Source: a virus (Duplodnaviria; Heunggongvirae; Uroviricota; Caudoviricetes). From it: a DNA stretch of 34,397 bases. A model generated the notes under the pieces. That model was not told the DNA's origin. It ran no database searches and saw only the letters and a list, made by a program, of their open reading frames with translations. The stretch lies in the IMG/VR virus record IMGVR_UViG_2541047966_000009; one strand, written 5' to 3'. Of this stretch, positions 1,086-34,397 are shown piece by piece; the first letter of the stretch is position 1, and each line of letters begins with the position of its first letter. The position numbers were made by a program, and so were the translations under genes.

Positions 1086-2181
1086 CGGACACCCCGGTCA
1101 TGTTAAGAGTGATCGCCGTACAGTTTGCCCATTCGTTTTCTGCCACCACCCTCAGTGCCGGTGTCACCAGTTCGACCTGGTACACCCCGGAAACGGACAA
1201 CACGCTGATAATCTGGCTGGGAACAATATCGCGCCCCAGCGTGGCGGTACGGGATGCCACCCAGTTCTGTATGGCGCTGTTAGCGTTGTCCTTTACCAAC
1301 CTTGCATCCTGATCACGATAGATCGTAATCCTGGCTTCAATGGTGTAATCCACCTGAACAGGTGTTTTAGCCCGCACGGTATCAGTGAGTGGTCTGACTT
1401 TTTCGTCAGAACAGAAACTCTCTACCAGAGTGAGGATACTGCTGTCCGGCAGACCAGTGCTGAGCAGCGGATACAGCTCGACAGTGCCGGGAGCGGGAGA
1501 AAGAACAGCAACGTCGACAATGCCGGGATGCGCCCCCATAGCATGAAAACGGTATGCACCACGGCTTCCGGCATTGGTGAATGACTCCGGGGCCAGCCTG
1601 ATACGCTCCCGGAGCCGGTCATCGTCTTCCTGCTCTGAACCGCCAGAGCTGGCCGTCAGATTGGTCACCAGCAGGTCAATGTTATCAATCTCATCGAGTA
1701 ACTGACTGACCTGCGCCGGTTGCCAGCCGTTGCCAGCGGTACCCGGCTCGGTACAGGTGGCCGTGACATTGACCAGCAGCAATCCGGCCTTCAGCACCAC
1801 GTCTGTATCGGTGGCAAAAATAATACTGTCGGAAGCGCTGACGCGGGTGCCTGCCGGGATCAGCACATCAATGGCCAGTGCCTCATCCACAGAGAACTGA
1901 AGTGTGGTGGTGGCAGGCTGCGCGGCAAGGCGGTATACACCGACCAGTTCACCGAGGTAATCAATCATCGGCTCACGGGAAAAAGCGACCAGATTCTGCT
2001 TCGCCGCCTCCTGTACTGCCACCCTGACCAGCATTTCGCGATAGGCCCACAGGTCAATCAGCAGACGTTCAGCCTGTGCCGGGTACAGCGTTTTTCCGGT
2101 ATCCGCTTCATACTTCGCAATCATTTCTGCCGTGATTTTATCGGCATCGCGTTCAATAAAATCGGGTTCTGTCAGCGCCAT
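1078..2181 (-). CDS. baseplate wedge protein, P2 gpJ / Mu gp47-like
   Basis: 367-aa ORF; size and synteny (W-J-I-fibre) typical of baseplate J family. Confidence 0.7.
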   Translation of the reverse strand: MALTEPDFIERDADKITAEMIAKYEADTGKTLYPAQAERLLIDLWAYREMLVRVAVQEAAKQNLVAFSREPMIDYLGELVGVYRLAAQPATTTLQFSVDEALAIDVLIPAGTRVSASDSIIFATDTDVVLKAGLLLVNVTATCTEPGTAGNGWQPAQVSQLLDEIDNIDLLVTNLTASSGGSEQEDDDRLRERIRLAPESFTNAGSRGAYRFHAMGAHPGIVDVAVLSPAPGTVELYPLLSTGLPDSSILTLVESFCSDEKVRPLTDTVRAKTPVQVDYTIEARITIYRDQDARLVKDNANSAIQNWVASRTATLGRDIVPSQIISVLSVSGVYQVELVTPALRVVAENEWANCTAITLNMTGVSDG

Positions 2182-2519
2182 AGCAGTTCCTGAGTACGGG
2201 GTTGTCCGTCTGAGCCTTTCCAGCTCACCCGGAGCGTAAGATGTTCGCCGTCGACGGCGGGTTTAACCGACATAAGCTGGCAGCGGGGTTCCCAGCGCCT
2301 GATGGCATCGACGGATTCGCGAACCACATGCGGAATGGCCCGGCCGACAGGCCAGTCGATATAAAGGTGCAGATTGCTGCCGAACTCCGGGCGATGCGGG
2401 TCGCTGCCGCGGGGAGTCCGCAGGATGATCTGGATGGACTGCCGGATATCATCCAGCCCCCGGACGATTTCGCCGGGAGCCTGCAGAGCTGGTTGCCAGA
2501 ATACTGAGGTCGTTTTCAT
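2172..2519 (-). CDS. baseplate protein, P2 gpW / T4 gp25-like
   Basis: 115-aa ORF; size and position upstream of gpJ-like gene. Confidence 0.65.
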   Translation of the reverse strand: MKTTSVFWQPALQAPGEIVRGLDDIRQSIQIILRTPRGSDPHRPEFGSNLHLYIDWPVGRAIPHVVRESVDAIRRWEPRCQLMSVKPAVDGEHLTLRVSWKGSDGQPRTQELLWR

Positions 2520-2575
2520 GGAGGCAGTATTGCCCCCGGGAAGTAAGCGCCGATATTAAAGGCGTTTAAGAAGGT

Positions 2576-3103
2576 TCAATGGGAATGGTGATTAGAGTTC
2601 TGACCATCAGCAAATATGTTACCCGTTGCATGGGCGCTTCCGTTGATTTCCAGATCACCATTGAGTGTCGCGGGGCCGTTGATCGTGGTAACTCCCGTGA
2701 GGTCGAGTTTTTTCCCTTTGAGAGAGATATCAGCGGCAACCTCCACCACGATACGCTCAATACCTCCTCTGACCGTCAGCGTATGGGTCGCGCGGTTATA
2801 ACTGAACTCCGCGCCATCAGCGTATTTCGTACCCCGGACGTTTTTATCACTGAACGGCGGTTTATCGACGTCTGAGTACACCGCGCCCAGAATAACACCA
2901 TCCTCGCCGTTGGCATCGAGCAGCACCTCAACCTGCTCCCCCACGTCAGGGAGCCAGTAATCCTTGTTATCCTGGGTATTGCGCTGTAGCACGTTAAGCC
3001 AGTTTGTGCGCAGATTATCGCATTCAGGCAGACGAACGCGGGCCTGAACCCTGTCGGCATCAACGGCACTGACCGTACCGACCTGACGGGTGACACCAGT
3101 CAT
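2576..3103 (-). CDS. baseplate spike protein, P2 gpV / Mu gp45-like
   Basis: 175-aa ORF; size and synteny between hub and gpW-like genes. Confidence 0.65.
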   Translation of the reverse strand: MTGVTRQVGTVSAVDADRVQARVRLPECDNLRTNWLNVLQRNTQDNKDYWLPDVGEQVEVLLDANGEDGVILGAVYSDVDKPPFSDKNVRGTKYADGAEFSYNRATHTLTVRGGIERIVVEVAADISLKGKKLDLTGVTTINGPATLNGDLEINGSAHATGNIFADGQNSNHHSH

Positions 3104-4254
3104 TTTTTCTTCTCCTTAATCACCGTCGATGTACTGCCATCCGGGTGATAAACCGTGAGTTTCTGAGTTTTTTGTTTTTTCCCTCTTGTGACTGGCCCCC
3201 GTGCCACTTCCAGCTCTGTGGTGTAGCCGCTGTTACGCTCAAACGCATGGCGGGCAGTGATTATCAGCCATGGACCGGATAACTGTCCAAAGCCCACCAG
3301 TTCAATTTTGTTGCCTGCTGTCAGTTGAGGCGTTCCCGTCAGCGTCAGGGAGCCGTTCTGCTGGTATTCGTTATGTCTGGCCAGTGCTGAATCCGCTTTA
3401 ATCCGGGCACTGTCCGGGTCGCTGACACGGCTGTTAACTTTAAGTGAGTCAGCGCTGGTAACCTTACCACCTTTGAGCTTTTTGTCGCTTTCACGGGTAC
3501 CACCATCAGCTTCGTAGACGATCAGTTTTTTACTGCTGCTTTTCTGGTGTTTTACCTTTGCAGATTTATAGACCCGGTTGATGGTGTCACGCAGGGAAAA
3601 GCGGGCCACATCCTGCGGTTTTAACTGCCTGACCGGCTCCTGACTGCGCAGTGTGGCCAGATGAGAAAAAATCAACTGGTCACTGACCACTTTCACTGCA
3701 TAACCATACTCGCTGGCCAGCCGGCGCAGAAAACCCACGTCGGTTTCAGCATACTGGGTCACCCGGTCGATTTTGATGGACTCAATGCTGCCCACCAGTT
3801 TCAGTCGGTGCTTTCTGGCAATCCGCCCCGCAACAGCTGCCAGCGTGGTGTTCTCAAAACCACGGCTGGATTTAGTCCGCAGAGCACTGTTAACCGAGGT
3901 GGCCACCCCACGGATAGCGACAACGGACGCGGGCGAACTCACTTCGATCTCGTCTATTGAGAATGTACCGCAGGACAGCAGTTTCTCGCCCTGATAACCC
4001 ATTTTCAGCGTCAGCGTGTCACCCTTGCCCGGATACCACTTATCCAGCCAGCGACCATCGGTGTCATCCAGCTCCACCTCAATGGTATCGGACTCATTTT
4101 TGATGTTATCGCTCCAGGTCACACGGGTGACATAAGGCGCGATATCAGAGGTGATATTTTTCTGCAGATACCACAGAGTGAACACCGGCGTCAGCACATC
4201 GCTGACGCCGGTTAACGCTGATACGTCTTGCGCAGTACTGTTTATCTCAGCCAT
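3100..4254 (-). CDS. tail/baseplate hub protein, P2 gpD / Mu gp44 (P)-like
   Basis: 384-aa ORF; size and synteny downstream of tape measure module. Confidence 0.65.
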   Translation of the reverse strand: MAEINSTAQDVSALTGVSDVLTPVFTLWYLQKNITSDIAPYVTRVTWSDNIKNESDTIEVELDDTDGRWLDKWYPGKGDTLTLKMGYQGEKLLSCGTFSIDEIEVSSPASVVAIRGVATSVNSALRTKSSRGFENTTLAAVAGRIARKHRLKLVGSIESIKIDRVTQYAETDVGFLRRLASEYGYAVKVVSDQLIFSHLATLRSQEPVRQLKPQDVARFSLRDTINRVYKSAKVKHQKSSSKKLIVYEADGGTRESDKKLKGGKVTSADSLKVNSRVSDPDSARIKADSALARHNEYQQNGSLTLTGTPQLTAGNKIELVGFGQLSGPWLIITARHAFERNSGYTTELEVARGPVTRGKKQKTQKLTVYHPDGSTSTVIKEKKK

Positions 4255-4457
4255 GGGGCAATATCCTCTTCTGTGCGGGCATCTTCAGCCTCAATAACCG
4301 GGATCAGTAACAACACCCCGGAGGGCAGCACCGGCGTAATGGCCACGTGCGGATTGGCTGCAATAATCCGGGGATAGCCCAGCGGGTCACCGTAGTACTG
4401 CCATGCCAGCGAATCCCAGCGCTCTCCGTCACGGGTAATATGTTCAAGAAACATCAC
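4242..4457 (-). CDS. small tail protein, P2 gpX-like (LysM-like)
   Basis: 71-aa ORF overlapping both neighbours; ...GERWDSLAWQYYGDPLGYPRIIAANP... resembles LysM-type tail protein X. Confidence 0.55.
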   Translation of the reverse strand: MMFLEHITRDGERWDSLAWQYYGDPLGYPRIIAANPHVAITPVLPSGVLLLIPVIEAEDARTEEDIAPWLR

Positions 4458-5338
4458 ACACTCCTCGTCAGTATTCTGGCGGCCATTGCACTTAATCCCG
4501 GAGACATGCGGTTGAATGCTGTGCCGGCGGCGTTAAGCTGCCCGGAAACGGTATCCAGAGCACCTGCAATATTTCTTTTGTCCACACCACTCAGCGCCGA
4601 CTGCGCCTGCTGTACATACGTGGCTGCCTCACTGGCTGTTCTGGCCAGACTGATGGCATCGGGCATGGATTCAGAGAGTGCATTAAACGCCGGAACACTT
4701 TTCCCCAGAGCTCCGGATATATTACCCAGTCCGCTCATCAGTCCAGGCACACGGGTCAGCGCGACAACGGGGTTACCCTTCATTTTCTGCGCCACCCGAA
4801 CGGCACTGATAGTGGTCTGGAGTACAGACTGCGCCTGTTTCGCATAGTTGACGCCGTTACGGACGAACTGCGCCACCCCGGAAGGCGATGGAACAGCACC
4901 CGATACAGCTCCGGCACCGGGAACCTGCCTGCGTATTGCCGGCGGTTGCAGAGGATTTTTCGGGTCACCGGTGTATTCCCGGAGAGACACGGTGGCACTG
5001 ACAGCCAGCACGTTACCGGTGCTGTCTGTCTGCTCGCTGGTTGCGGTCACATCGGTAATCACGAACCAGCCGCGATAGTCACCGTTGCCGAAGACCAGCG
5101 CCAGTGCCTGATGGGCCTTCATGGCTGTTCGCACTCTCGCCAGCTCCACGTCGGGCACACAATAATGCTGATGGAAGACCAGGCTTATCTGGATTTCGTC
5201 CAGCCTGTCGCCGACAAACTGCAGGCCGGGTTTACCCTCGATGCGGGCATGCTCCGCATAATCGACGCCGAACGTGGCCTCGAAGCCGTCCCAGTAGGTA
5301 ATCAGTTCAAACTCAATATCACCCAGTACGGCAAACAT
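4454..5338 (-). CDS. tail protein following tape measure (P2 gpU / Mu gp43 DNA-circulation N-domain-like)
   Basis: 294-aa ORF directly after tape measure gene with overlapping stop/start; Ala/Ser/Gly-rich C-terminal half. Confidence 0.5.
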   Translation of the reverse strand: MFAVLGDIEFELITYWDGFEATFGVDYAEHARIEGKPGLQFVGDRLDEIQISLVFHQHYCVPDVELARVRTAMKAHQALALVFGNGDYRGWFVITDVTATSEQTDSTGNVLAVSATVSLREYTGDPKNPLQPPAIRRQVPGAGAVSGAVPSPSGVAQFVRNGVNYAKQAQSVLQTTISAVRVAQKMKGNPVVALTRVPGLMSGLGNISGALGKSVPAFNALSESMPDAISLARTASEAATYVQQAQSALSGVDKRNIAGALDTVSGQLNAAGTAFNRMSPGLSAMAARILTRSV

Positions 5339-21685: not shown

Positions 21686-21932
21686 GTGTGTCTCCTCGTT
21701 TGGTGGAGACAGCATCACAAATGTGGCGGGATACGGATTTTAAACAGCGTTAATAGTGAAGATGTAAACGTGCACTGCATGATGGCTTTGAAAGAACGAC
21801 CAGCCCGGTACCCGAACACCGGGCTGGCCATCGCCCCACAGGAATGCGCTGTGAGCCGACCAAGGTTCAGTCAGTCTCGCGAGACCAGACTAGCCTGCCA
21901 TATTTTTTATAATTGTAAAAGGCTTACAGATT
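21686..21932. promoter_or_regulatory. divergent intergenic region: candidate late-operon promoter (leftward) and dam promoter (rightward)
   Basis: 247-bp non-coding gap between divergent holin and methyltransferase genes; contains perfect 10-bp inverted repeat CCAGCCCGGT-n8-ACCGGGCTGG at ~21800-21827 and AT-rich TTTTTTATAATTGTAAAAGG before dam. Confidence 0.4.
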
Positions 21933-22703
21933 ATGAAAATGCAGACATTACCCATCGTTCCATGGATTGGTGGCAAACGCCGCCTTGCAAAACACATCCT
22001 GCCGCTGTTTCCGGCGCATGAATGTTATGTGGAGCCGTTTTGTGGGGCAGCAGCGCTCTATTTTCTTAAGGTACCCGGCAAGATCGAAGTCATTAATGAT
22101 ATCAACGGTGAGCTGGTGAACCTGTATCGGGTGGTAAAACATCATCTGGAAGAATTTGTACGCCAGTTCAAATGGGCGCTGGTCAGCCGGCAGATCTACA
22201 AATGGCTGCAGATCACCCCGGAAGAAACACTGACGGATATCCAGCGTGCAGCACGGTTCTACTACCTTCAGAAGCAGGCGTTTGGGGGCAAGGTGGCGGA
22301 GCACAGCTTTGGTACCTCCACCATATCCCCGCCACGCTTCAACCTGCTGCGTATTGAAGAAGAACTGTCAGCGGCACACCTGCGGCTTTCCAGAACGGTC
22401 ATAGAACACATGGACTGGCAACAGTGCATAGAACGATATGATCGCCCGCATACGTTGTTCTACTGTGACCCTCCATACTGGGGAACGGAAGGTTATGGTG
22501 TGGAGTTCGGACTAGAAAATTATGATCATATGGCAGATTTAGCACGCAGGATCAAAGGGAAGATGATTATATCGGTGAACGATATCCCGGAAATGCGGCA
22601 GGCATTCAACGGTCTAAATATTCAGTCGGTTGATATCAGCTACAACCTCAAGATCACTGGCAAATCCAGTCGCAAGAAGGAACTCATTATCCTCAACTTT
22701 TGA
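21933..22703 (+). CDS. DNA N6-adenine methyltransferase, Dam-like, apparently orphan
   Basis: 256-aa ORF; SAM-binding motif EPFCGAAALYF near N-terminus and catalytic DPPY (FYCDPPYWGTEGYG) near C-terminus; no adjacent restriction endonuclease candidate. Confidence 0.8.
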   Translation: MKMQTLPIVPWIGGKRRLAKHILPLFPAHECYVEPFCGAAALYFLKVPGKIEVINDINGELVNLYRVVKHHLEEFVRQFKWALVSRQIYKWLQITPEETLTDIQRAARFYYLQKQAFGGKVAEHSFGTSTISPPRFNLLRIEEELSAAHLRLSRTVIEHMDWQQCIERYDRPHTLFYCDPPYWGTEGYGVEFGLENYDHMADLARRIKGKMIISVNDIPEMRQAFNGLNIQSVDISYNLKITGKSSRKKELIILNF

Positions 22704-23898
22704 CCGAATAGTAAGACTTCATGCAGTGAATCAAGTACTGCATGAAGTCAAGGGCTGGTTTTGTGTACCAAAAATAAACAGTGATAGCGGTAATAATTCC
22801 CATAACTAGAACACCACGTATAATCCAGAACGTACGTTTCTGCGTGTCTAGTCGCGCAGAAATACTGCTAAATACACCAGCCACGTCATCTTTAATGAAG
22901 GAATATTCCTTATTAATCTGTTTTTCTTTGTATTCAATTTCTTCGCCTAAGGCCTTTATAGATTGCATCTGGTTCGAAAGTGCCAGCCAGATTAACGTTG
23001 CAGCAAAAATGCATCCCAGAAGAATTATTGTGTTTGTTATCCCTTGGCCTGACCATTTCGTAGCCACTTTGAATTGGGTAGCTACGATAACAGAGGCAAC
23101 AGGAATGCCAAGTATATGGTTCTGGATATCTGAAAACGCTTTGTGGATTTTACCCATTTCTTCGACTTTTGCAGCACGCAGTTGATCCATTACTTTGTCA
23201 TAAGAGAATCCAGAAGAGTAGATACGATACCCTTTCAGAAACTTTTCATGCAGACGCTGAATATTGTCCAGTAAATAAGCGAATACTAGAGGTGAATCAA
23301 TTCCATCACTAACTGCTTGAATACTTTCAATCAGAATATCTAGCTTCTGATCCTTATGGGTATCATCATTGAAACAAGCTATAAGGTTATCAAGATACTC
23401 CCTTTGCAAATTTTGTACATTTTCTGCAGCGAAGTGCGGTAATAGCTTGATAACTTCTTTTTTCAGAAAAACTAACTGACAAGTTGAGTTATCAAAGTAG
23501 GCCGCGGCCTCTTTTAGCAGGTTAACGAACTCGAGAATCTTCCGGTAGTTGCTGATGAAAACGGGGATATCTTCATCATCATTACGAAATTTTGTTTCTA
23601 GGATGAAGTAATTAGCTGGCTCAAGGCACTGATGCTTTGGAGCATTTAGCAATTTTTCATGGGTGGAAAACACAAGTCCCAGTCCACTCCGTGGTGACGT
23701 CACACGTAGGATGATCGTGTTACCTGGAGCGATAGTGCCTGTATCAATAGAAAGACCATATTCACGAGGATCATCAAGCAAAGTATCAACCAGATCACAA
23801 TCGGACTGATCTAAGAGCAACAGCGAACCGACACGAAACCCCTCTTGGAATTCCATACGACGATACAGAGCTGTCAGCATCTCAAATGAAATCGCCAC
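22693..23898 (-). CDS. membrane protein of unknown function (large N-terminal soluble domain, two C-terminal TM helices); candidate effector
   Basis: 401-aa ORF, AT-rich; GTG start 2 nt after NdpA-like stop (coupled), internal ATG 18 nt later; hydrophobic ITNTIILLGCIFAATLIWLAL and TFWIIRGVLVMGIITAITVYFWY near C-terminus; no recognisable catalytic motif. Confidence 0.6.
   Translation of the reverse strand: MAISFEMLTALYRRMEFQEGFRVGSLLLLDQSDCDLVDTLLDDPREYGLSIDTGTIAPGNTIILRVTSPRSGLGLVFSTHEKLLNAPKHQCLEPANYFILETKFRNDDEDIPVFISNYRKILEFVNLLKEAAAYFDNSTCQLVFLKKEVIKLLPHFAAENVQNLQREYLDNLIACFNDDTHKDQKLDILIESIQAVSDGIDSPLVFAYLLDNIQRLHEKFLKGYRIYSSGFSYDKVMDQLRAAKVEEMGKIHKAFSDIQNHILGIPVASVIVATQFKVATKWSGQGITNTIILLGCIFAATLIWLALSNQMQSIKALGEEIEYKEKQINKEYSFIKDDVAGVFSSISARLDTQKRTFWIIRGVLVMGIITAITVYFWYTKPALDFMQYLIHCMKSYYSVKS
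22715..22749. other. perfect 13-bp inverted repeat (hairpin) at the convergent dam / membrane-protein gene ends
   Basis: GACTTCATGCAGT-gaatcaagt-ACTGCATGAAGTC, starting ~12 nt after the dam stop and overlapping the last codons of the minus-strand 401-aa gene; no adjacent U-tract. Confidence 0.4.
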
Positions 23899-23900
23899 GA

Positions 23901-24908
23901 TTAAACCTCAGTCATCCACATTTCCCTAAATTCTTCAGGTACATTACGTAGGGTGATAATATTTGTTTCCGGATCATAATCAATATAGCCTTCAGTTTTC
24001 CCTTCCCGGTCAAACTTAAGTTCCCAATATTTAGACTTGCCTTTAAAAGATACCAGAGCCCGAATGACTCGACCATCAGGAACGAAGCCATCCGATAACT
24101 CCAACTCTTCAGCAGCAAGTTTACCAGATAACTCCTCGGGAGCCTGGGGCCAAATGGCATTAACAAGGGTTTCAAGACTAAGTGGTTCACCAGCCTTACT
24201 TAGTGCATGTAAGTGTTCAAACGCATTCTTAAGAAATGCATCTTTTTCAGCGCCGTCAAGTCCTTTCTCTGCCGCAAATGCTTTTAAAACGTCACGTAAC
24301 TTTTCAGACTCTCGTTTGGCGATTAAGACATCATTACAGCCTAGGAACTGTTTAAAATAGTTTGAAACATTACCTTGCCCCTTAAGAAAACTGATATAGC
24401 GCTCTGCGCCACTTTCCCACGCGGTTAAGTCAATGCGCCCAGCCATACGCAGCTTAGCAATATCAAGATAGGTACTATCTTGGATGTTAAAATCATCTGT
24501 GACAGTGGACCCAATGGTAGCGCTTACAATAGCTATCAACAGGTGTTCATTGTGTCCTATCACGATATTTGCAAAAAGAACATAACCACCAGTAGCCATG
24601 TTTTCTCGCTGAGAACGTTCCGTCAGGTGATGCATCATTCGGCAGGAACTTTGGTAGAAATCATCAACACCTTCGAGAAAGTCCCCAGCCATTCGTTCCA
24701 TAGGATAGTTATCCGTATCGCCTTCAAAATAGCCATAACCTTTACCTGTGCGTCCTGCATATTTTGCACAAATATCGTTTATAAGGCGCTGAGAGGCTTC
24801 AGTAACTAGACCTTCTTCAGGACTCAATCTCTCAGAAGCGTCTCCATTTTGTTGTTTGTCTAAAATGTGAACTACAACGTGTTTAACTTCAATGGTCTGC
24901 TCAGACAT
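23901..24908 (-). CDS. divergent NdpA/YejK-family nucleoid-associated protein homologue
   Basis: 335-aa ORF (same length as E. coli YejK); recalled family similarity in ...GGYVLFANIV..., ...STYLDIAKLRMAGRIDLTAWESGAERYISFLKGQGNVSNYFKQFLG... and C-terminal ...YDPETNIITLRNVPEEFRE; SD AAGGTGG 8 nt upstream; AT-rich. Confidence 0.6.
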   Translation of the reverse strand: MSEQTIEVKHVVVHILDKQQNGDASERLSPEEGLVTEASQRLINDICAKYAGRTGKGYGYFEGDTDNYPMERMAGDFLEGVDDFYQSSCRMMHHLTERSQRENMATGGYVLFANIVIGHNEHLLIAIVSATIGSTVTDDFNIQDSTYLDIAKLRMAGRIDLTAWESGAERYISFLKGQGNVSNYFKQFLGCNDVLIAKRESEKLRDVLKAFAAEKGLDGAEKDAFLKNAFEHLHALSKAGEPLSLETLVNAIWPQAPEELSGKLAAEELELSDGFVPDGRVIRALVSFKGKSKYWELKFDREGKTEGYIDYDPETNIITLRNVPEEFREMWMTEV

Positions 24909-24978
24909 TGGCTATCCACCTTATTTTTTATTGCTTAATGGCAAATAATTTCTGCTATATGTTCTCGTTAGGAACACA

Positions 24979-25386
24979 TTAACCCACATTTTTTAACCGC
25001 TCAATCGTTGCGGATAATTCCTTCAGTTGTTTTTCCATCTCAATCACACGCTGTTTTTCTTCAGCGCCTCGCATGAGATCTCGCCGAACCTCAGGATCTA
25101 ACTGGTTTAGAAGTTCAAGCATTTTAAGGTCTGACGGGCTGAATTGATGTTGTGTTGGTACAGCAACAATTTCTTTAGATGGAATATGTTCTTTACCGGT
25201 AAGTAGCCAATCGATCGATACACCCAAATGGGCACTTAGCGCAACAAGAGCCTCTGCGTTTGGTTCTCTCTCTCCACGCAAATAGTTTTGAAGTGAGCGA
25301 TATGGAATTTTTGATAAGTCAGATAATGCCTTTATTGTCATGCCATTAGCATCCATCACTTCACGCAATCTCTCTTTTGTACTCAT
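24979..25386 (-). CDS. prophage repressor, XRE-family HTH
   Basis: Start at ATG MSTKERLREVMDANGMTIKALSDLSKIPYRSLQNYLRGEREPNAEALVALSAHLGVSIDWLL (HTH at N-terminus), coiled-coil C-terminus; divergent from Ner-like gene; ORF-track TTG start at 25482 unlikely. Confidence 0.7.
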   Translation of the reverse strand: MSTKERLREVMDANGMTIKALSDLSKIPYRSLQNYLRGEREPNAEALVALSAHLGVSIDWLLTGKEHIPSKEIVAVPTQHQFSPSDLKMLELLNQLDPEVRRDLMRGAEEKQRVIEMEKQLKELSATIERLKNVG

Positions 25387-25402
25387 TTGAACATATCTCA
25401 AT

Positions 25403-25430
25403 TTGACACACTCATTTGGGTGTGTACAAT
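25403..25430 (+). promoter_or_regulatory. candidate sigma70 early promoter with overlapping operator-like inverted repeat
   Basis: TTGACA-16 nt-TACAAT about 40 nt upstream of the Ner-like start; inverted repeat ACACAC-n8-GTGTGT (~25406-25425) overlaps spacer and -10. Confidence 0.5.
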
Positions 25431-25468
25431 AGACCCAATAGAGTACATCATAACCTAACAGGAACACG

Positions 25469-25699
25469 GTGCATATGAACAAACAACAAGTTCGGGCACG
25501 GCTGGTTGAACGAGGCAGTAGCTTGCGCCAGTTCGCGCTTAACGCGGGCTATGAACCACGAACAGTCACCCAGGCAGTCAGTCGCTGGGCTGGTAAAAGT
25601 GAACTACCTCGCGGTCGTTTGACTTATCGGATTTTGCGAGATCTATCGGTTGCAATAGGTAAAGAAGTTACCCCCGGTATCCTTAAGGAGGCGTCATGA
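25469..25699 (+). CDS. ner: Ner-like DNA-binding regulator (Mu Ner/Nlp family)
   Basis: 76-aa ORF; ...RARLVERGSSLRQFALNAGYEPRTVTQAVSRWAG... resembles Ner-family HTH; first gene of rightward early operon; GTG start with AGGA 6 nt upstream (ATG 2 codons later). Confidence 0.65.
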   Translation: MHMNKQQVRARLVERGSSLRQFALNAGYEPRTVTQAVSRWAGKSELPRGRLTYRILRDLSVAIGKEVTPGILKEAS

Positions 25700-30175: not shown

Positions 30176-30706
30176 ATGGCAAAAAGTACAAAAGGTGCAA
30201 AACGTATCAAGGCCGCAGCAGCACTCTGGGTGCCGGGGACACGTGAAGAGGTCATTGAGGGCATCAGACTGCTCGGTGACGCACACCGTGAACTGGTCAG
30301 GGCTGAAACAGAAATGAATGACGCCATTGGCGATATCACCGCACGTTATGCCCCGCTCACCGAGAGCCTGAAAAAACGCATGGCCGAACTGCAGTCCGGT
30401 ATTCAGACATGGTGTGAGGCACACCGTGATGAACTGACCGGCAACGGGAAGGTGAAGTTCGCTAACCTCACCACCGGCGAGGTGCAGTGGCGAAACCGTC
30501 CGCCATCAGTCAGTATCCGTGGGGCGGATAATGTTATTGAATTACTGAGACGTCTGGGGCTTGAGCGCTTTATCCGTGTAAAGGAGGAAATAAATAAAGA
30601 CGCTATCCTGAATGAAAAGGACGCCGTGAAAAATATTCCCGGTATTACCATAAAAAGTGATATTGAGGATTTTTCAATAATTCCTTTTGAGCAGGATGTG
30701 CAGTAA
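30176..30706 (+). CDS. gam: host-nuclease inhibitor Gam (Mu Gam family)
   Basis: 176-aa ORF (Mu Gam ~174 aa); basic N-terminus and coiled-coil-like core; position after A/B as in Mu. Confidence 0.7.
   Translation: MAKSTKGAKRIKAAAALWVPGTREEVIEGIRLLGDAHRELVRAETEMNDAIGDITARYAPLTESLKKRMAELQSGIQTWCEAHRDELTGNGKVKFANLTTGEVQWRNRPPSVSIRGADNVIELLRRLGLERFIRVKEEINKDAILNEKDAVKNIPGITIKSDIEDFSIIPFEQDVQ

Positions 30707-34082: not shown

Positions 34083-34397
<315 letters not shown>

Follow-up and report, generated by a model that had tools for sequence, protein, structure and literature searches.

YejK is an abundant nucleoid protein that was for years without a clear role. More recently, two studies from 2026 have linked YejK-like proteins to phage defence (PMC13092281; bioRxiv 10.64898/2026.04.06.716658). 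The first of them includes DS-1 (DefensePredictor; WP_000355468.1 and WP_000150292.1), which has been validated as an anti-phage defence system (Science 2026, PMC13092281). DS-1 pairs a 391-amino-acid (aa) YejK-domain protein, which bears a zinc ribbon, with a 404-aa membrane protein encoded just after it; in E. coli it confers a protection of 7.6 logs against Bas1, 2.7 logs against Bas26, and 1.7 logs against Bas3 and T3 (PMC13092281). The second example is type II PANGU, in which a YejK-like nucleoid-associated protein (NAP), Pag2A, is encoded together with a membrane effector, Pag2B, whose N-terminal domain is acidic and mimics DNA and whose C-terminal domain is transmembrane (preprint, bioRxiv 10.64898/2026.04.06.716658). 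Once the nucleoid is degraded, Pag2A departs from it and engages Pag2B, whereby the infection is aborted. Both genes are required against T4, and T4 denA (EndoII-loss) mutants escape; upon infection a Pag2A-GFP fusion departs from the nucleoid, and Pag2A binds the N-terminal domain of Pag2B with a dissociation constant of 19 nM (bioRxiv 10.64898/2026.04.06.716658). Here, we describe a gene pair of this kind in a Mu-like prophage, the IMG/VR virus record IMGVR_UViG_2541047966_000009, whose whole stretch of 34,397 nucleotides (nt) is called the window below. The pair encodes a YejK-like NAP and a 401-aa membrane protein (the partner) and, by analogy with the systems just mentioned, is probably a prophage-borne defence cassette that aborts infection by other phages and has the NAP as its sensor (type II PANGU-like, DS-1-like). 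It is a diverged new member of a class described in 2026, with a prophage context that is newly noted, and not a new kind of system. The features of the pair are the following:

23901-24908, minus strand: YejK/NA37-family NAP gene, 335 aa, ATG start; proposed sensor (PagA-like, DS1_1-like)
24916-24922, minus strand: Shine-Dalgarno sequence AAGGTGG, 7 nt ahead of the NAP start codon (ATG), as read from the sequence
22693-23898, minus strand: partner gene, coding for 401 aa from a GTG that is preceded at 8 nt by GAGG; membrane effector in the proposed scheme (PagB-like, DS1_2-like)
23119-23898, minus strand: acidic, predicted cytoplasmic N-terminal domain of the partner, aa 1-260, with an alpha/beta region and the start of a long helix
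22693-23118, minus strand: basic C-terminal membrane module of the partner, aa 261-401, including the FSDIQNxILGIPVA motif

A preliminary description of this DNA had pointed to a 335-aa protein of the NdpA/YejK family at positions 23901-24908, and an open reading frame (ORF) of that length is present there on the minus strand, with an ATG start and a Shine-Dalgarno sequence. The family membership is decisively supported by the Pfam NA37 profile (PF04245), which the NAP matches with an E value of 6e-81 and 272.8 bits (cutoff 24.6) from residue 12 to residue 327, that is, end to end over profile positions 1-324 of 325; and in a phmmer search of the PDB the sole match was E. coli YejK (9be2; E 6.7e-30). 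The pairwise comparison with chromosomal YejK that had been called for was made by BLASTP, and the E. coli K-12 protein, which is also 335 aa long as had been supposed, aligned over 334 columns with 28% identity (E 4e-34). The strong divergence proposed at the same time is borne out by the NCBIfam YejK equivalog model NF001557, on which the NAP reaches 186.5 bits, short of the cutoff of 341, and K-12 YejK 554.5; because its score falls below the equivalog cutoff, the NAP is taken as a diverged paralogue and not as an orthologue. In agreement with an additional copy, chromosomal yejK is found once in each of 5426 complete E. coli genomes (5426/5426) and the NAP copy in 19 of them. The gene is AT-rich as described, with a GC content of 0.425 against 0.543 for the window. 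The family has already been catalogued, as phrog_3767 ('nucleoid associated protein', DNA metabolism) in PHROGs and under the PGAP name 'nucleoid-associated protein'.

What the preliminary description overlooked is the 401-aa membrane-protein gene downstream of the NAP gene. Its GTG start sits on the same strand, 2 nt past the NAP stop codon. No Pfam family was matched by the partner, which corresponds over its full length to phrog_5023 ('unknown function'); with a profile built from 16 homologues, 1258 representative clusters were retrieved at E <= 1e-3; among the best 150 matches, those of full length measure about 380-460 aa, mostly 390-410. By composition, the partner falls into two parts. 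Residues 1-260 carry a net charge of -11 (isoelectric point, pI, 5.0), and each of the 16 aligned homologues is acidic here as well (net -5 to -15). Residues 261-401 have a pI of 9.25 and contain three hydrophobic segments (262-280, 285-311, and 356-378). An AlphaFold2 model with a mean predicted local distance difference test (pLDDT) score of 83.6 comprises an alpha/beta region at the N terminus, a helix of 60 residues, and three more long helices. Lysine plus arginine counts (about 9 in the 312-355 loop, 0.2 in the 281-284 turn, and 1.3 in the C-terminal tail) suggest, by the positive-inside rule, an N-in topology with three helices. The most conserved stretch of the family, FSDIQNxILGIPVA, is located at the start of the membrane module, with invariant columns from S256 to A268.

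The association between the two genes is close to constant. In a GTDB survey with one genome per species, 39 loci with a relative of the 401-aa protein were obtained, and in 36 of them that gene is directly preceded, on the same strand, by an NA37 gene; the three exceptions are Cupriavidus remnants. The same arrangement has been found in 50 of 52 IMG/VR contigs, where the other two run into contig ends, so that coupling is kept in 86 of the 91 related loci of both sources together. The Cupriavidus loci (L031-L033, 6001-6618) were considered as an alternative, NAP-less architecture, and this was rejected, as each holds a 208-aa ORF which corresponds to the C-terminal membrane module of the partner alone, without an NA37 gene nearby; these ORFs are probably remnants. 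Among 69 non-identical pairs, the pairwise identities of NAP and partner correlate with r 0.94 (Mantel test, 0/2000 permutations), which indicates that the genes are inherited together and diverge together. The hosts include Enterobacterales, Aeromonas, Shewanella, Acinetobacter, Pseudomonas, and many Burkholderiales, and the pair is also present in the Sinorhizobium phage phi2LM21. Approximately 20 of the viral contigs with the pair are Mu-like (MuA and DUF3102 nearby). In E. coli lambdoid prophages, a second version of the pair (344/392 aa; 50%/38% identical) occurs in 16 complete genomes, between the antiterminator Q and holin genes and on the strand opposite to the flanking Q and late (lysis, terminase) genes. 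The presence of the pair in both Mu-like and lambdoid prophages implies that the cassette moves among cargo slots of different temperate phages.

The order and spacing of the genes are those of DS-1, in which a NAP gene is likewise followed closely by a membrane-protein gene; the gap is of 2 nt here and of 2-3 nt in DS-1 (221777/221780). By BLASTP, the NAP matches the DS-1 NAP with E 7e-9 and the partner matches the DS-1 partner with E 6e-10; for the partners, hhalign gives a probability of 95% (E 2.5e-8). In the same manner, the NCBIfam model NF053868 (DS1_1) recognises the NAP with E 1.6e-17 and 63.5 bits (cutoff 330), and NF053869 (DS1_2_antiphage) recognises the partner with E 3e-21 and 75.9 bits (cutoff 315). 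Judged by these alignments, both window proteins are distant homologues of the DS-1 components. In addition, DefensePredictor rates a NAP 40% identical to that of the window as a 'predicted novel defense gene' (PMC13092281). These data bear on a different explanation, according to which the NAP would be a stand-alone phage nucleoid protein, next to a functionally unrelated membrane protein, and would act on prophage, host, or incoming DNA by coating, silencing, or reorganising it, as a xenogeneic silencer or a topology modulator. Such a role would be in keeping with the non-specific DNA binding and the modulation of topoisomerases of the YejK family, with the AT-rich DNA beside a repressor gene, and with the DNA metabolism class of PHROGs. 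It is opposed by the near-obligate same-strand coupling at 2 nt and the correlated divergence across phage types and bacterial classes, by the phage defence that the homologous DS-1 pair provides, and by the distribution of the cassette: relatives of the prophage occur in 637 of the 5426 complete E. coli genomes and the pair in only 19, which argues that it is dispensable for the phage. We consider this explanation very improbable. Among the functions named in the preliminary description, stand-alone silencing and remodelling of the host nucleoid are therefore disfavoured by the near-constant coupling and by the homology of both proteins to DS-1 components; a sensing role, on the other hand, fits a PANGU-type model, but with the loss of host DNA as the signal instead of incoming DNA.

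Type II PANGU is most likely the best functional model for the pair, matched by architecture and description only. It shares with the pair the bicistronic arrangement of a YejK-like NAP and a transmembrane protein, the occurrence in E. coli, and a partner with an acidic N-terminal domain (-11 here; 16/16 homologues) and three C-terminal hydrophobic helices. E. coli carries at least two diverged versions (the Mu-like one and the lambdoid one of 344/392 aa), either or neither of which may be PANGU-Ecu. In the PANGU preprint, the DNA-binding-defective variant Pag1A-KRK is toxic without phage (bioRxiv 10.64898/2026.04.06.716658). By analogy with these systems, a BcepMu-type transposable prophage would carry the cassette as lysogen-expressed cargo beside its repressor gene, and in the lysogen the NAP would sit on chromosomal DNA as a YejK-type dimeric clamp. 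Degradation of this chromosomal DNA by a superinfecting phage would release the NAP, and the freed protein would bind the acidic, presumably DNA-mimicking N-terminal cytoplasmic domain of the membrane protein; the C-terminal helices of the latter would then compromise the inner membrane, and the infected cell would stop supporting phage growth. A transposable phage such as Mu replicates by transposition into the intact host chromosome. Since it needs that chromosome intact, the carrier would not be expected to trip the sensor, and the cassette would be compatible with it.

A reversed polarity may also be conceived, in which the membrane protein senses attachment or envelope perturbation and releases or activates the NAP, which then clamps invading phage DNA and blocks replication or late transcription, so that the cell survives. 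This would resemble Kiwa (KwaA/KwaB), which also combines a membrane protein with a DNA-binding protein, and the PADLOC KwaA model does give a weak match on the membrane module of the partner (E 8.1e-5, residues 262-394). Furthermore, the PANGU authors leave the engagement and activation step between Pag2A and Pag2B in type II undetermined (bioRxiv 10.64898/2026.04.06.716658). The KwaA match is limited to 2 of 16 members of the partner family and lacks structural support, and neither a KwaB/DUF4868 match on the NAP nor a structural match to Kiwa was obtained. Membership in Kiwa was rejected on the grounds of the 2/16 KwaA matches and the missing KwaB domain, and the reversed polarity has, in our opinion, a slim chance of being correct.

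Returning to the abortive-infection cassette, its proposed carrier agrees with the genomic context. The phage-borne, mobile setting named at the outset is confirmed by the genes around the NAP and by the 100% identity of the stretch to a prophage in E. coli MS20655. Its Mu-like genes comprise regulators (a CI-type helix-turn-helix (HTH) repressor, ner-like and IclR-like HTH proteins, and Mor), transposition and early functions (a 589-aa DDE transposase, a MuB-like ExeA ATPase, Gam, and a DUF3102 protein), lysis genes (holin, SLT, and spanin), and structural genes (head genes and a contractile tail, with a tail-fibre region adjoining a serine-recombinase gene). The early operon points rightwards, to the prophage end beside a frameshifted torS, and the late genes point leftwards; on our reading of the annotation, the layout is Mu-like and of the BcepMu type. 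Three neighbouring features delimit the position of the cassette:

24979-25386, minus strand: prophage repressor, HTH_3/CI-type, directly upstream of the NAP gene, with a 70-nt spacer
22693-25482, no strand: low-GC island (0.41-0.43) with the repressor, NAP, and membrane-protein genes, within a prophage of 0.54 GC
21933-22703, plus strand: phage D12-class DNA adenine methylase gene, running towards the partner gene, with whose 3' end it shares 11 nt

The methylase (PADLOC MTase_II, E 3.7e-115) forms one boundary of a variable slot. Among sister prophages, the stretch between the repressor and holin genes varies: in that of ST131 there is no gene between repressor and Dam, and in those of IAI39, SF-088, and AHB1 and in the Klebsiella phage KP12 it holds other, unrelated and unannotated genes. 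Therefore, the NAP gene sits in a variable cargo slot, which spans 21686-24978 in the window and 1329-3501, 1552-4155, 1329-2651, and 3662-4952 in the sister loci L042, L043, L044, and L045, respectively. No terminator-like site and no significant fold (z -0.83) were detected in the spacer between repressor and NAP, and a promoter scan returned 10 sites, no better than chance (7.6 +/- 3.1 in shuffles); repressor and cassette are possibly co-transcribed. RexAB of phage lambda causes abortive infection in lysogens by means of one soluble DNA-binding component and one membrane component. The cassette resembles it as an exclusion module of two genes that follows the prophage repressor directly and on the same strand; RexA is not known to be an NA37 protein, and the likeness is one of layout, a sequence relationship having been neither found nor sought.

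The same location has a bearing on a further alternative, a life-cycle or addiction module that would make the timing of lysis, or superinfection exclusion at the membrane, depend on the condition of the host chromosome, or would stabilise the prophage in the manner of a toxin–antitoxin (TA) system. In its favour, the pair is flanked by the immunity region and the lysis genes in Mu-like phages and by Q and holin in the lambdoid ones, and the partner is a small helical membrane protein. Nevertheless, the pair is not conserved in either phage family, the lambdoid version is on the strand opposite to the flanking Q and late genes, and PANGU constructs have been reported to be non-toxic, unlike classical TA systems (bioRxiv 10.64898/2026.04.06.716658). 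The life-cycle explanation accordingly receives little credence from us.

Several observations weigh against an abortive-infection cassette of the PANGU/DS-1 class and have to be set beside those in its favour. No PADLOC (2023) model matches the NAP. Neither protein reaches the DS-1 equivalog cutoffs, their scores being far below, and with about 23% identity for each protein the relationship to DS-1 is remote. The DS-1 NAP has its NA37 domain at residues 42-382, after a CxxC...CxxC segment, whereas that of the window NAP starts at residue 12, and the N-terminal zinc ribbon of DS-1 is missing from it. Assignment to PANGU 'cluster 2' would follow from architecture alone, and PANGU itself is described in a preprint. 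Membrane damage by the partner is proposed by analogy, and a structure comparison of its fold gave no informative match. No PADLOC match to known defence genes was found in the slot of the sister prophages of IAI39, SF-088, ST131, and AHB1, so that the label of 'defence hotspot' rests on the variability of the slot alone. The protective phenotype of this variant would be that of the homologous systems.

The remaining objection concerns the DNA-binding surface of the NAP. The structure of YejK is a dimeric clamp with a basic pore (NAR 2024, PMC11229321; PDB 9be2), and DNA binding is impaired in mutants of R173/R176/K177 or R276/R280/K284 (PMC11229321). Only R280 among these six pore residues is kept in the NAP (window R283). 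In the alignment, the N-domain triad R173/R176/K177 is replaced by a gap, G179, and N180, and of the three C-domain pore residues R283 alone is retained; for these reasons DNA clamping by the NAP is not assured. Nearby basic residues of the NAP (K176, K186, R280, K289, and K291) could substitute for those of the pore. In contrast to the pore, the hydrophobic dimer interface of the C-domain (F285, G287, L292, I294, F296, W307, L314, I316, P320, L323, L327, and one more) is the same or similar at 11 of 12 positions in the NAP and across the 69 paired NAPs. With 11 of 12 interface positions and one of six pore residues maintained, dimerisation of the NAP is likely from its sequence, and DNA binding is plausible but not assured. 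Taken as a whole, YejK and the NAP are alike in fold family, length, overall acidity (pI 4.9 for both), conserved core, and C-domain dimer interface, and basic residues K18, K56, R158, R170, K176, and R283 are common to them. They differ in that the NAP, at 28% identity, is not an equivalog, has not conserved the N-domain triad, and possesses basic residues specific to the paired-NAP clade (R98, R154, K186, K291, and R301) and an invariant cysteine (C191). Moreover, YejK is encoded by a stand-alone core gene and the NAP by an accessory gene coupled to that of a proposed effector.

These differences open a bolder version of the proposal, to which we assign a small but real chance. The paired NAPs, having lost the triad and gained basic residues and a cysteine of their own, may read another signal, such as DNA ends, supercoiling, or a phage product; the partner, with about 1250 clusters and neither a Pfam model nor a structural relative, may be a new gated membrane effector built around FSDIQNxILGIPVA; and carriage by a transposable phage may be a specific adaptation. 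If this were true, the prophage would guard the very substrate that is needed for its replication.

The biological significance of the locus lies in the gene pair. It shows a YejK-like system of the defence type in a natural setting, the immunity region of a Mu-like prophage; the word 'prophage' occurs 0 times in the text of the PANGU preprint (bioRxiv 10.64898/2026.04.06.716658). The points of interest are how the effector works, how the DNA-binding surface has changed, and the natural setting in a lysogen. A native lysogen is thereby offered for studying how a nucleoid-bound sensor activates a membrane effector, and prophage carriage as a possible reason for the patchy distribution (19/5426 E. 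coli genomes) becomes testable. The repressor-to-holin slot, whose prophage family is present in 637 E. coli genomes, is also a place in which to seek further defence systems. In IAI39 and SF-088, the slot contains a gene for a 328-aa protein that shares 4 nt with the repressor gene, and after it one for a 193- or 203-aa protein; in AHB1 it contains a 297+145-aa pair. The only annotation found for sister-slot genes was DUF2441 and a weak Flk-like N-terminus in the 328-aa protein (E 3e-12), and these genes are candidate uncharacterised cargo or defence genes.

Some additional observations on relatives of the pair were made. A distant sub-clade from IMG/VR (L091-L104) has partners that are 19-27% identical to the window protein and NAPs that are equally close to chromosomal YejK and to the window NAP; hence, the paired NAPs may not form one clade apart from YejK, which would agree with the polyphyletic origin that the PANGU preprint claims for PANGU (bioRxiv 10.64898/2026.04.06.716658). 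Truncated partner proteins are found in Salmonella and E. coli (P0007, 362 aa; P0026, 255 aa). A truncated 198-aa copy of the NAP (P0140; 99% identity, 44% coverage) is present in at least 1000 contigs of Salmonella Typhi, which suggests that a decayed copy of the cassette has become fixed in this lineage. In phi2LM21, an adenine methyltransferase gene is convergent just downstream of the pair (L105, 2882-3718), and Dam homologues are near the pair at several other loci.

With regard to the prophage itself, its right end (window 34083-34397; L001 31646-34550) comes directly after Mor and adjoins torS, annotated as frameshifted, and its left end in strain MS20655 abuts a truncated 4Fe-4S protein gene. 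The record coordinates of the matching prophages in the 19 genomes differ widely, as expected for random transposition, with the proviso that the assemblies may start at different points. Finally, the same prophage carries a gene for a Mu Gam-like host-nuclease inhibitor (window 30176-30706, plus strand), which may be of interest given that DNA degradation is the proposed trigger of the cassette.

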